Below are positions 60,368-62,765 of a DNA stretch of 64,000 nt, piece after piece (position 1 is the stretch's first letter; each line of letters opens with the position of its first letter). The stretch is from assembly GCA_000004985.1 (NCBI GenBank), contig GG738858.1; one strand, 5' to 3'. Below the pieces are notes generated by a model. It did not search any database. It was not told the origin of the DNA and worked only from the letters and a program-made list of their open reading frames with translations. The DNA comes from Naegleria gruberi. Its lineage: Eukaryota. Made by a program: the position numbers and the translations under genes.

Positions 60368-61093
60368 ATGGCCAGTGAGCACTATTCGAATGGTAGCAAC
60401 TCGTCCTCTTCACCAAGAAGTAATGAAGAGTTTCGTCTAGTTTCTCCAACAGACAGTTCCAGTGCGTGGACTATTGAAGGACGAAATGAACAAGTTTCTC
60501 CGAATCTTGTTGGTAACAAGATTAAAAAACCTCGTCGTTTGAGAAAGCAAATTAACAATGATCACTTTAAACAATTTTACTTTGAGTTGAAAGTAAACGA
60601 ATCGAATAGGAAAAAAGAAGGTAATTGTCAAGGAATGAATAGTCAACATGTAGATTCTACTGCAGCTTCTGATAAAAGTGGTTCTTCTTCATCTGTTTCG
60701 TCTGGTAAATTGAAACGAAAGGAATCTTATGAAATTCTACAATTCGAAACTGCGCAGGAGAAGGATGAAGAAACTTTATATCAAGAAAGAATCAAGAATG
60801 AAATTAAAGCAAATTCTCATCACTTTTGTCTTCCCTCTAATAAGAAAAAGAAGACAAATGCCAAACATCAACAAGACATCAATCAATCTGTAAATAATCA
60901 AGAAGAAGAAATACTTCAACCATGTAATAATATTCCTGTAATCTATCAACCACCAATCAATCCAATTGTATTCAATGAGCCTAATGTTAATCCTGTCCAA
61001 TTTACTGAACCTGTCACTAATCAAATAAGCATTGATAATGCTGAACTATTGAGTTTAATTCTACAGCTACTCACCAATAATAATAATAAATGA
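60368..61093 (+). CDS. novel S-rich protein with basic KKPRRLRKQINN..FKQFYFEL motif (family member 1)
   Basis: 241 aa with an ATG at 60368. It is a paralogue of the ORF at 62085-62765 and has the same architecture: Ser-rich N-terminus, basic NLS-like motif, FYFEL, then (Y/F)E...FET...HSSHF.L.SKK.KK. Confidence 0.5.
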   Translation: MASEHYSNGSNSSSSPRSNEEFRLVSPTDSSSAWTIEGRNEQVSPNLVGNKIKKPRRLRKQINNDHFKQFYFELKVNESNRKKEGNCQGMNSQHVDSTAASDKSGSSSSVSSGKLKRKESYEILQFETAQEKDEETLYQERIKNEIKANSHHFCLPSNKKKKTNAKHQQDINQSVNNQEEEILQPCNNIPVIYQPPINPIVFNEPNVNPVQFTEPVTNQISIDNAELLSLILQLLTNNNNK

Positions 61094-62084
61094 TGGACTA
61101 TTCAATAGATTGTTCACGACCTTTTATTTTAGGTAACAACAGCTAAAATAAATAAAAACCCATAAAAGTTTCCAATAATCATTTAACAAGAAAGAAATGA
61201 CATTATTTTAAGTTATATTAATTTCTAAAATCTGAATGTAAAGAGAGGGTAAGGTGAAAGTCCTCAAATTCTCCTCAAACATCCTCCTTGCTATTTGACG
61301 AAACCTTATTCGAAACCTATTCCTTCATTCACTGCAACTTTTAGGTTCATCAAATGTACAGTTAAACTACAGTCTGAATAACTATTACTCTTATCATCAA
61401 CAAAGGAGAAATGGATAACACCTTGGATTAAAAATTGCCAATTTCGAACAAGGACCGGGCAAAATATTTTCAGTTAACTAGCAAAACGAAGATTAAATGG
61501 GACAAATACTTGGATTAGTGCAAAATCAATGATAATGGCAAATTTAATGTCCATTTCGCCTTTTCTTTAAGAATGTGCTTTCCTTTCAACAGCTGTCACA
61601 TTTGAAGAAACTGTCAACTGCCTCCTTAATTTCTCAAACAGCAAAACAACAAAAACATGCAAACAAACAATACACGCACACATGATGTTATACATTGTGA
61701 ACCACCAACCGTAACTCATTCCAAACACAATGCACCTACCCTAAATTGGCAAACCATCGAATCATGGACTTGTTCAAATTGGCATCATTTGCTAGATCAA
61801 TAATTGGTATCAATATTCAAATATTCAAAAAGACAATTGTTAAAATGAATGGTTCCGAGAATGTCAATACTCAAATGCCAAATTAAATCCTATCAAGACT
61901 TGAAGGCCTCTTTGTGACAATCTTTCTTGAATTGTTAATGTTTTTCCAACGATAATTCTGCATGTTGCTTGAATCGCACCAAGGTCGTAACAAGCCGTAA
62001 AACAAATCTTTTTTGGCTCGTTAGAATATTCTTGTGGGAAACTGAACGAAACGTTTTGGAAGAAACAAAGAAAAAAAAGGGTCC

Positions 62085-62765
62085 ATGTCACCTCCCAGAG
62101 AAACTCCACAACAACAACTTCACAACAATGATTCTTCTGTTAGAGCATCATCACCAAACTCTTCCAGTAGTTCTGACACATCTGCCACAAATCAAAACAT
62201 CATTAAGAAACCAAAACGTTTACGAAAACAATTAAATAATCGAGAATTTAAAAAGTTTTACTTTGAATTAGTGCCAAATAATTCGAATTCTGGTGAGGAA
62301 CCAAGTTTTTCCATTCCACAAGATTCGTATCAGGTTAAAAAATTCGAAACTTCACATTCGAATGGTGATGAGGAAATAAGGAATGCTATCAAAGCACATT
62401 CTTCACATTTCTATTTACATTCAAAGAAAACAAAGAAAAATTCACCTTCTTCTTCATCTGGTTCTGGGGCTGTCACATGTAAAGAGCCATCACAACATAC
62501 ATGTCAAATAATTCAAAATGACAATCAACAAGTACATGCCACAACTTCTACATCATGTACTTCAATACAACAACAACAAAATCAACATGTTTCTTTATTG
62601 GATTCTTTGGTTGTCAAGAGACAGAGTTTACAGAACTCGCATGTCAATGATACATATATGGACTCTGAATTAATGTTAAATCTTGATTATGATGATATTA
62701 TAGACCAATTATGTAATGTTAATTCACCATATTATCAGACCTTTAAACATTTCAATGTCAAATGA
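62085..62765 (+). CDS. novel S-rich protein with KKPKRLRKQLNN..FKKFYFEL motif (family member 2, tandem paralogue)
   Basis: 226 aa with an ATG at 62085 behind an A-run. Conserved blocks shared with 60368-61093. Confidence 0.5.
   Translation: MSPPRETPQQQLHNNDSSVRASSPNSSSSSDTSATNQNIIKKPKRLRKQLNNREFKKFYFELVPNNSNSGEEPSFSIPQDSYQVKKFETSHSNGDEEIRNAIKAHSSHFYLHSKKTKKNSPSSSSGSGAVTCKEPSQHTCQIIQNDNQQVHATTSTSCTSIQQQQNQHVSLLDSLVVKRQSLQNSHVNDTYMDSELMLNLDYDDIIDQLCNVNSPYYQTFKHFNVK

Follow-up and report, generated by a model that had tools for sequence, protein, structure and literature searches.

Two single-exon genes lie on the plus strand of the window, which is the whole stretch of 64,000 nucleotides of Naegleria gruberi DNA analyzed here. 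Gene 1 (type-1 paralogue) extends from 60368 to 61093 and encodes 241 amino acids, and gene 2 (type-2 paralogue) extends from 62085 to 62765 and encodes 226 amino acids; each coding sequence is an open reading frame (ORF) running from ATG to stop. The first-pass annotation had described a co-oriented pair about 1 kb apart, and the two ORFs are indeed found there on the same strand, separated by an intergenic spacer of 991 bp (61094 to 62084) that presumably holds the terminator of gene 1 and the promoter of gene 2. This spacer matches no Rfam family and contains two TTCGAA sites, at 61309 and 61443. TTCGAA sites are unusually dense around both genes. A comparison of the two genes showed neither DNA repeats in common nor a duplicated promoter. 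The product of gene 1 is the N. gruberi "predicted protein" XP_002679209.1 (EFC46465.1, NAEGRDRAFT_47703; a 100% match to P0001). For gene 2, protein-cluster look-ups gave neither an identical NCBI protein nor one clustering with it at 90%, and its 90% cluster is composed of Logan and ENA members only; the public protein set of N. gruberi seemingly lacks this gene, which merits annotation. The two proteins align by BLASTP with an E-value of 2e-14 and 39% identity across the core, where their conserved blocks A, B and C are collinear, in agreement with the common block order proposed earlier. When both genes were searched by tblastn against the whole window, each returned its reciprocal copy only (E=5e-12 and 4e-13), all other matches having E-values above 0.3, and the family HMM recognized exactly two copies, and no third, among all six-frame ORFs. 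Within the 64 kb, therefore, the search for more copies ended with the two known genes. The best explanation for the two ORFs is an old tandem duplicate pair, belonging to a small family confined to Naegleria and its close relatives.

The resemblance between the two proteins is concentrated in short blocks; the sequence between them has diverged, as had been stated, and aligns poorly, as does that after them. Ahead of the basic block, the N-termini contain 24% and 26% Ser, so that their description as Ser-rich holds. In gene 1 this low-complexity region, defined by its composition, comprises residues 1-49 (60368 to 60514) and includes three S-P sites. Block A, KKP(R/K)RLRKQ(I/L)NN..FK.FYFEL, was found in both genes exactly as noted before. 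It occupies residues 50-80 of gene 1 (NKIKKPRRLRKQINNDHFKQFYFELKVNESN; 60515 to 60607), where an NLS-like basic cluster 1 is joined to the aromatic FYFEL, and residues 38-68 of gene 2 (NIIKKPKRLRKQLNNREFKKFYFELVPNNSN; 62196 to 62288), where it is delimited by the alignment and contains an AlphaFold2 (AF2) core-model strand at FYFELVP. Block B is SYEILQFET in gene 1 (residues 120-128; 60725 to 60751) and SYQVKKFET in gene 2 (residues 81-89; 62325 to 62351; aligned, with a core-model strand at YQVKKFE), and all members keep its Y and F unchanged. The order of this block was correctly reported, but its pattern is SY(E/Q)...FET and not (Y/F)E...FET. In a similar way, block C is present but reads (N/H)S(H/S)HF(C/Y)L.S(N/K)K(K/T)KK, slightly unlike the HSSHF(C/Y)L.S(N/K)KK.KK proposed initially. 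Together with basic cluster 2, it covers residues 140-162 of gene 1 (ERIKNEIKANSHHFCLPSNKKKK; 60785 to 60853), with invariant I, S and HF followed by the K/R cluster, and residues 96-118 of gene 2 (EEIRNAIKAHSSHFYLHSKKTKK; 62370 to 62438), in which a helix is predicted in both AF2 runs.

In addition to the blocks described initially, the two proteins weakly share a C-terminal hydrophobic helix, ELLSLILQLL in gene 1 and ELMLNLDYDDIIDQL in gene 2. The gene 1 motif (residues 225-236, AELLSLILQLLT; 61040 to 61075) is common to the N. fowleri relative P0006, whose C-terminus, REQLLYLLFTLLT, resembles it. In gene 2, AF2 predicts an acidic-hydrophobic helix, accompanied by an S-P site (residues 196-217, LMLNLDYDDIIDQLCNVNSPYY; 62670 to 62735), which is kept in P0004 (LMLDLDYNDIIEQLNDTNSPYY) and P0008 (FMLSLDYESITDLLLDENSPF). 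Over five members, the invariant columns of block A are P, RLRKQ, FK and YFEL, and the K/R run that forms basic cluster 2 after block C is kept in all five. The family can thus be written as P(K/R)RLRKQ-x(5)-FK-x(2)-YFEL ... Y-x(4)-F ... I-x(3)-S-x-HF ... K/R cluster, an ordered pattern that is present in genes 1 and 2, P0004, P0006, P0008 and P0009. P0008 does not share the N-terminal Ser-rich region (5% Ser).

The members outside the window are few. P0006 corresponds to the 486-residue protein FDP41_010410 of N. fowleri, while P0004, P0008 and P0009 are relatives on three metagenome contigs from related amoebae. P0009, P0004 and P0008 are orthologues of gene 2 (96%, 52% and 34%, respectively), and a partial orthologue of gene 1 in L007, a strain 97% identical, shows two differences over 177 residues, an additional Ser and a K>R change. 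No relatives outside Naegleria and its close-relative clade were detected among the 1.8-5.8 billion proteins searched, nor any in JGI metagenome contigs (two scans) or viral contigs. The family is accordingly lineage-specific, as anticipated, its carriers being N. gruberi, N. fowleri and the three contigs. With a five-sequence HMM, P0002-P0004, P0006 and P0008 each score above 100 bits and everything else 30 bits or less; the profile was built from P0004, P0006, P0008 and both window genes, so these member scores are partly circular. The window genes score 189 and 107 bits against a four-sequence profile. The membership of P0009, which has no profile score, is based on BLASTP and on its 90% cluster. 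Two off-clade matches of a two-sequence profile proved spurious: P0005, a Mollicutes Lipoprotein_17 repeat protein of 3490 residues whose score accumulated over about nine units, each contributing roughly 7 bits, and P0007, an ACP-like protein. Both collapse under the five-sequence profile, to 30 and 13 bits, respectively. A literature search yielded no paper naming the gene or protein identifiers and no expression data, and the supplementary files available among three Naegleria papers contain no entry for them.

Several lines of evidence indicate that the two ORFs are genuine genes. In the comparison of gene 2 with P0004 the dN/dS ratio is 0.34 (dS about 1.4), and with P0008 it is 0.24 (dS about 3.4, saturated). 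Against L007, the coding parts carry only in-frame indels and 10 of the 16 coding substitutions fall on third codon positions, whereas the spacer shows 2.3% substitutions and 23 gap positions. The synteny is also maintained, since L007 retains the tandem pair and L002 retains gene 2 together with the downstream chloride-channel (CLC) gene. Chance ORFs, or pseudogenes in AT-rich DNA without a functional product, would fit the low-complexity composition and the lack of gene 2 in the public protein sets searched. They would not account for the conservation of the ORFs over their full length, with the blocks in an identical order, in N. fowleri and other genomes or contigs (at least four besides this one), nor for dN/dS values of about 0.24-0.34, for a spacer with 23 gap positions next to coding DNA whose indels are all in frame, or for the conserved synteny. 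Such an origin is extremely improbable and, as far as sequence evidence can go, already refuted. Because of this purifying selection, which stands in for transcription evidence, the ORFs are regarded as functional genes; both are very probably real, selected, clade-restricted paralogues lacking a known domain.

The proteins are hydrophilic (GRAVY about -1) and have S-P sites. They show no signal peptide or membrane segment; no hydrophobic 19-residue stretch exists, the maximum Kyte-Doolittle value over 19 residues being 0.8 or lower. Cys amounts to 0.5-2.7% of the residues and none is conserved among members. The AF2 model of full-length gene 2 has a mean pLDDT of 51 and a pTM of 0.17, with 118 of the 226 residues below 50, and its only helices are at 95-105, 202-210 and 217-221, of which the two C-terminal ones are the most confident part (pLDDT about 78). 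In the core model (pLDDT 63), FYFELVP and YQVKKFE form strands, the block B segment of gene 2 pairing with FYFEL, and DEEIRNAIKAHS (60-71 of the core model) forms a helix; this model, computed from a five-sequence alignment, is of low confidence (pTM 0.22). It tentatively suggests a core made of a beta-hairpin plus a helix between two conserved basic clusters, and such a beta-beta-alpha module may also be absent altogether. The predictions give no stable globular fold and conservation is limited to short blocks, which is what is expected of disordered proteins with linear motifs. The proteins are thus likely to be mostly disordered and to act through short functional motifs.

What such proteins do can be approached from their basic clusters. 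In the five members, the monopartite NLS core K-K/R-x-K/R corresponds to the KRLR or RRLR of an invariant P(K/R)RLRK, which four of them extend upstream as K-K/I-P-K/R-R-L-R-K, P0008 having HPKRLRK, and the surrounding sequence is predicted to be non-globular. Judged by this pattern, the basic motif is plausible as a classical monopartite NLS. Clusters of this kind are likewise a feature of nucleolar, RNA-binding, cytoskeletal and calmodulin-binding proteins. From these features we infer that the family may enter the nucleus, bind nucleic acid and act in regulation, and tentatively propose that its members may be lineage-restricted disordered nuclear regulator or adaptor proteins. Selection preserves a core and a tail. 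In the core, basic cluster 1, KKP(K/R)RLRKQ, is followed by the predicted aromatic strand F(K)xFYFEL, a Ser-rich variable loop of about 10-80 residues, the second strand Y-x-hydrophobic-x-x-F, the helix (E)..AI.A.S.HF.L and the K/R run of basic cluster 2; a linker that has diverged separates it from the tail, an amphipathic helix at the C-terminus. In the mechanism envisaged, the proteins would be nuclear because basic cluster 1 would act as a classical importin-alpha NLS. The hairpin-plus-helix core with its flanking basic clusters would constitute a small binding module, which perhaps folds only upon meeting nucleic acid, chromatin or a partner protein, and the Ser-rich N-terminus, with its S-P sites, would be a phospho-regulated region. 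The C-terminal helix would recruit a partner or be a motif for activation or interaction. Its type-1 form is LLxLLxxLL-like, while in type 2 an S-P site comes after an acidic LDYxDIIxQL; these different C-termini suggest that the two types may have diverged in their partners after the duplication.

That the proteins are direct DNA-binding transcription factors is unlikely; no DNA-binding fold was recognized in the family (hhalign probabilities of 0.11% against bHLH and 0.15% against GARP/Myb). More speculatively, and with a slightly lower likelihood, the core could be an undescribed small nucleic-acid-binding module (basic arm, beta-hairpin, helix, basic arm) defining a family of transcription factors peculiar to Naegleria, whose two types would have separated long ago and bear different C-terminal effector helices. 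Such factors might act on the TTCGAA sites of their own genes, in auto- or cross-regulation.

Other functions would account for part of the same features. With a low probability, the proteins could be nucleolar or RNA-associated disordered proteins, of the ribosome-biogenesis or RNA-chaperone type, in which the clusters would bind RNA, and not DNA or importin only, and the Ser tracts would be phosphorylated by CK2 or CDK. This would agree with the conserved pair of K/R clusters, with the low complexity rich in Ser and with strongly hydrophilic sequences predicted to be disordered, as well as with the failure to recognize a sequence-specific DNA-binding fold, but core ribosome-biogenesis factors are usually eukaryote-wide while this family is clade-restricted, RGG, RRM, KH and long acidic tracts are all absent, and a conserved amphipathic helix at the C-terminus would be more usual in a protein that recruits partners. 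Disorder, a few short conserved motifs, S-P sites and rapid evolution would equally suit unstable, fast-evolving regulators of the cell cycle or of differentiation, similar to CDK inhibitors, securin or substrates and inhibitors of the APC/C, that control the amoeba-to-flagellate switch or mitosis through short linear motifs. This is rather improbable: by inspection against the consensus patterns, block A fits no D-box (RxxLxx[LIVM]), cyclin RxL/Cy motif, PIP-box or RVxF, and no KEN box was seen. Block A might instead be a basic amphipathic segment for calmodulin or membrane binding, and not an NLS, the proteins then being cytoplasmic signalling adaptors. Inspection does show hydrophobic residues at 1-5-10 spacing (L/I...L/I....F) in a strongly basic stretch; nevertheless, the 1-5-10 pattern is generic, AF2 gives block A no helix, and basic cluster 2 and the acidic C-terminal helix would be left unexplained, all of which makes this alternative still less probable.

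A divergent member of a known family (NGF cystine knot, CaMKII hub/NTF2-like, bHLH, GARP/SHAQKYF Myb or C2H2-like) is very improbable and already largely refuted. The claim that no known domain could be recognized was borne out by Pfam, NCBIfam, PDB profile, structural and profile-profile comparisons: no Pfam or NCBIfam family is common to more than one of the five members, and the structural-match search gave nothing. NGF (PF00243) matches gene 1 alone at E<=10, via INNxxFKQ(F/Y)(Y/F)FE, at 23.3 bits, below the gathering score of 27, and in the PDB profile search the gene 1 match has an E-value of about 0.1; the six knot cysteines and the signal peptide are absent and the motif is considered coincidental. 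The CaMKII hub (5ig5; NTF2-like, PF08332) matches with E=0.011 over 38 profile positions (7-44), less than one third of the fold, and neither Pfam nor the structural search supports it. The PDB profile searches gave nothing beyond these two coincidences of short motifs. By eye, blocks A and C recall bHLH helices 1 and 2 and the GARP KKPR...SHLQKF. The same 0.11% (bHLH, PF00010) and 0.15% (Myb/SANT, GARP, SHAQKYF, PF00249) speak against both, and the basic-region Glu of the former and the conserved Trp of the latter are absent. The control alignments, validated against PDB, recover the true families: the bHLH profile finds MAX, MITF and MyoD in PDB at E-values of about 1e-19 to 1e-23, and the GARP/Myb profile finds PHR1, ARR10 and LUX. 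A C2H2 beta-beta-alpha zinc finger was also rejected, since over five members there is no conserved Cys and a single invariant His (S.HF), so that the metal-ligand pairs are missing.

If these proteins are true nuclear regulators, they would represent a lineage-specific addition to the little-known gene-regulatory toolkit of Heterolobosea. This group includes the brain-eating pathogen N. fowleri, whose homologue FDP41_010410 has no human relative. Otherwise, the family is an ordinary one, among many uncharacterized clade-restricted disordered protist families, and it has no bearing on any long-standing open question.

The likeness to NGF, which is animal-specific, is limited to a string of roughly 15 residues in gene 1, INNDHFKQFYFELKV, whose counterpart we take to be INNSVFKQYFFETKC; unlike NGF, the family proteins have no cystine-knot cysteines, signal peptide or pro-region. 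The CaMKII hub is an alpha+beta cone domain of about 130 residues, and the alignment of a 24-residue family segment with KKPKRLRKQLNNREFKKFYFELVP of PDB 5ig5 is a curiosity, not evidence. The similarity to bHLH and GARP/Myb proteins is superficial and lies in the layout, where a basic arm at the N-terminus precedes an amphipathic segment with hydrophobic-Pro at its end, and a variable loop then leads to a helix (EIRNAIKAHSSHF). This helix is reminiscent of helix 2 of MyoD (EILRNAIRYI) or helix 3 of GARP/Myb (VASHLQKF, SHAQKYF); in contrast to the helices of those domains, AF2 gives strands for the family blocks A and B. A close parallel is found in taxonomically restricted (orphan) disordered nuclear proteins with a classical monopartite NLS and short linear motifs, a descriptive class and not a homologous family, into which the Naegleria proteins would be placed by their hydrophilic, low-complexity character, predicted disorder and conservation in short blocks. 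They share with that class a terminal amphipathic helix of the partner-recruiting kind, and their basic cluster resembles the NLS class of c-Myc (PAAKRVKLD) and SV40.

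Two genes on the plus strand of the window, whose G+C content is about 33%, are on the sequence evidence a conserved paralogous pair of a clade-restricted family: gene 1 (60368-61093, 241 aa) and gene 2 (62085-62765, 226 aa), both ATG-to-stop ORFs, with a gap of 991 bp between them. Their co-orientation is as proposed in the first-pass annotation, and the similarity is real: the products match with a BLASTP E value of 2e-14 and share 39% identity in the core. In tblastn comparisons of either protein with all 64 kb, the other copy alone was matched (E=5e-12 and 4e-13; next best E>0.3), and a family HMM run against every six-frame ORF found exactly two family copies in the window. 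The DNA of the two genes is alignable only in the core and no duplicated promoter is visible between them, which indicates an old duplication. The product of gene 1 is 100% identical to XP_002679209.1 / EFC46465.1 (NAEGRDRAFT_47703, 'predicted protein'). The exact sequence of the gene 2 product is absent from a 15-billion-protein collection, and only metagenome (ENA) and Logan members make up its 90% cluster; therefore, this gene is probably unannotated in the public N. gruberi protein set. The pair lies between an upstream METTL16-type RNA methyltransferase gene (PF05971, E=3.5e-48) and a downstream, minus-strand voltage-gated chloride-channel (CLC) gene (PF00654). Directly upstream of gene 1, a 135-aa ORF (59362-59769) has a hydrophobic, signal-peptide-like N-terminus (MTRSSSLSSLLTFVVLFLLVIGIVNIAEG) and matches no family, its sole Pfam hit being a sub-threshold one to RXYLT1_C (E=0.004).

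Several other features of the window deserve mention. The palindrome TTCGAA occurs 42 times, against 17.5 +/- 4 expected, and 12 of these sites fall in the 2.6 kb around the pair (59717-62362), where the window rate predicts about 1.7. Five closely precede gene 1 (59717-60328), with the first of them within the 135-aa ORF; two are in the spacer, and five are inside the coding sequences, in part as codons for F-E-T and S-N. An extended version, aTTCGAAac, is found at 59984, 60125 and 61309. No enrichment is seen upstream of the N. fowleri homologue. This cluster could be a cis element or merely local composition. Two other genes carry long leucine-rich-repeat arrays of 72-nt (24-aa) units, at 32582-33985 (14 copies) and 55775-57250 (19 copies), each followed by a tail of 21-nt repeats (consensus AATGAAGAGGAGTACAATGAA; NEEEYNE if in frame), and look like a further paralogous pair. 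GC-skew excursions at 4001-6000 and 30001-34000 reach +0.35, -0.28 and +0.28 per 2 kb, that at 32-34 kb coinciding with leucine-rich and acidic repeat arrays.

The products of genes 1 and 2 share a Ser-rich N-terminus (24-26% Ser), followed by block A, KKP(R/K)RLRKQ(I/L)NN..FK.FYFEL, block B, SY(E/Q)...FET, and block C, (N/H)S(H/S)HF(C/Y)L.S(N/K)K(K/T)KK. The block order described earlier thus stands, with the motif expressions then given slightly off at two positions, and a weakly shared C-terminal hydrophobic helix can be added to it. The same order is kept in N. fowleri FDP41_010410 (XP_044568058.1, 486 aa) and in two metagenome proteins, P0004 (ENA ERZ4903137, 199 aa) and P0008 (ENA ERZ929261, 226 aa); two further proteins, P0009 and P0002, share 96% identity with gene 2. 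The metagenome contig L007, whose DNA is 97% identical to 60562-62767, preserves the tandem pair, with the final part of a gene 1 orthologue preceding that of gene 2. At the locus encoding P0004, the CLC gene (59% aa identity), again on the minus strand, adjoins the gene 2 orthologue. The N. fowleri gene (10001-11461 of the locus in VFQX01000006.1) encodes a protein of double length, with extra Ser/Pro/Gln-rich linkers, in non-syntenic surroundings (a PH-domain gene, AP-mu, ribosomal uL10 and VPS9), and no second family member is found within 10 kb on either side. Two types of C-terminus can be told apart. One is an LLxLLxxLL-like helix, present in gene 1 (AELLSLILQLLT) and in the N. fowleri protein (REQLLYLLFTLLT); the other, LxLDYxxIxxxLxxxNSP(Y/F), consists of an acidic-hydrophobic helix and then an S-P site, and is that of gene 2, P0004 and P0008. 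Given these two types, and an N. fowleri protein ending like gene 1, the duplication probably predates the split of the two species. Sample ERZ929261 / ERR1078381 holds both a 97%-identical N. gruberi strain (L007 and L001) and the divergent carrier of P0008, which is 34% identical to gene 2 in amino acids; at least two related amoebae are therefore present there.

That both genes are non-functional ORFs is extremely improbable. The dN/dS of gene 2 is 0.34 against P0004 (dS ~1.4) and 0.24 against P0008 (dS ~3.4, saturated). Between the window and L007 all indels in coding DNA are in-frame, a pattern that a comparison with L001 also supports, while 23 gap positions fall in the 985-bp spacer. 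Substitutions affect 2.3% of the spacer, 0.6% of gene 1 and 1.9% of gene 2 (coding vs spacer, Fisher p=0.076, alone not significant), with 10 of the 16 coding changes at third codon positions. Start and stop positions agree with those of the orthologues, so that single-exon models are adequate. As far as sequence evidence reaches, chance ORFs and pseudogenes are excluded.

A two-sequence core profile, run exhaustively with HMMER against 1.84 billion representative proteins, matched Naegleria-type proteins and two off-clade proteins, nothing else. The first of the latter, a Mollicutes Lipoprotein_17 repeat protein, scores 53.6 bits with this profile but 30.2 with a five-sequence one; the second, an ACP-like protein, drops likewise from 36 to 13 bits, and both are spurious. 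P0002-P0004, P0006 (the N. fowleri protein) and P0008 each exceed 100 bits with the five-sequence profile, three of them being rows of it. Word-indexed scanning of 5.8 billion proteins yielded a single addition, P0008, and neither JGI metagenome contigs, scanned twice, nor viral contigs gave any members. The suggestion of a lineage-specific family is accordingly borne out, with the proviso that the two-sequence profile is weak (P0008 scores only 31.7 bits) and may miss more distant heterolobosean members.

The family proteins are domain-less, predicted to be mostly disordered and strongly hydrophilic (GRAVY about -1), and they lack any hydrophobic segment that could serve as a signal peptide or span a membrane. 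The full-length model of gene 2, built on a five-sequence alignment, has a mean pLDDT of 51 and a pTM of 0.17, with 118 of 226 residues below 50. It shows helices solely at 95-105 (EEIRNAIKAHS), 202-210 (DYDDIIDQL) and 217-221, and the C-terminal motif is its most confident part (~78). Modeled in isolation, the core (aa 35-120) pairs the strand FYFELVP with YQVKKFE, followed by the helix DEEIRNAIKAHS, at low confidence (pLDDT 63, pTM 0.22). The earlier failure to recognize a domain is confirmed by Pfam, NCBIfam, PDB profile and profile-profile comparisons, none of which gave a shared family. In Pfam, the five members have sub-threshold, member-specific matches only, for instance KdpC for gene 2, and NCBIfam gave no match. 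NGF was rejected for gene 1, the only member matched (23.3 bits, where the gathering score is 27), as the cystine knot is lacking. PDB profile searches returned NGF again, with E ~0.1-0.7, and a single chain of the CaMKII hub (5ig5), aligned over 38 positions at E=0.011. Both matches are due to the aromatic string FK.(F/Y)(Y/F)FE; the hub identity fails for want of an NTF2-like fold. Cryptic membership of a known fold, to which such matches might point, is very improbable.

The selected elements are a short core between two basic clusters and a C-terminal amphipathic helix that differs by type. The two K/R clusters are conserved in five of five members, and the first fits the classical NLS pattern K-K/R-x-K/R, which makes a nuclear location probable. 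The core might act as a small module that binds nucleic acid, chromatin or a partner protein, the type-specific helices would recruit different partners, and the S-P-rich N-terminus may be regulatory. The first-pass interpretation is thus borne out in part: its view of a novel, lineage-specific family with no known domain holds, and its proposals of an NLS, nucleic-acid binding and a regulatory role are plausible. A nuclear regulator or adaptor is tentatively preferred. A nucleolar or RNA-associated disordered protein, which would also accommodate the predicted disorder and basic clusters, is unlikely. A cell-cycle or differentiation regulator acting through short motifs is improbable, as inspection showed no fit to any canonical degron or docking motif, and a cytoplasmic calmodulin- or membrane-binding adaptor is slightly more improbable still.

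That this putative nuclear regulator binds DNA directly, as a transcription factor, is doubtful. By eye, the blocks recall bHLH proteins in their basic arm, in a helix-1-like segment with hydrophobic-Pro at its end, in the loop and in EIRNAI (EILRNAI in MyoD), and GARP/SHAQKYF Myb domains in KKPR... and (A/S)H..(H/K)F. Control profiles recovered the true bHLH and GARP/Myb families in the PDB (E ~1e-19 to 1e-29), and their profile-profile probabilities against the Naegleria profile are 0.11% and 0.15%, respectively, so both identities were rejected. No mention of the gene or protein identifiers was found in the literature searched, nor anything on these genes in the supplements of Naegleria papers, and the public database entries for gene 1 and for the N. 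fowleri homologue are named 'predicted' or 'hypothetical' protein. The family is undescribed, and the finding is real but ordinary: clade-restricted, disordered, NLS-bearing proteins with short conserved motifs are common in protist genomes.
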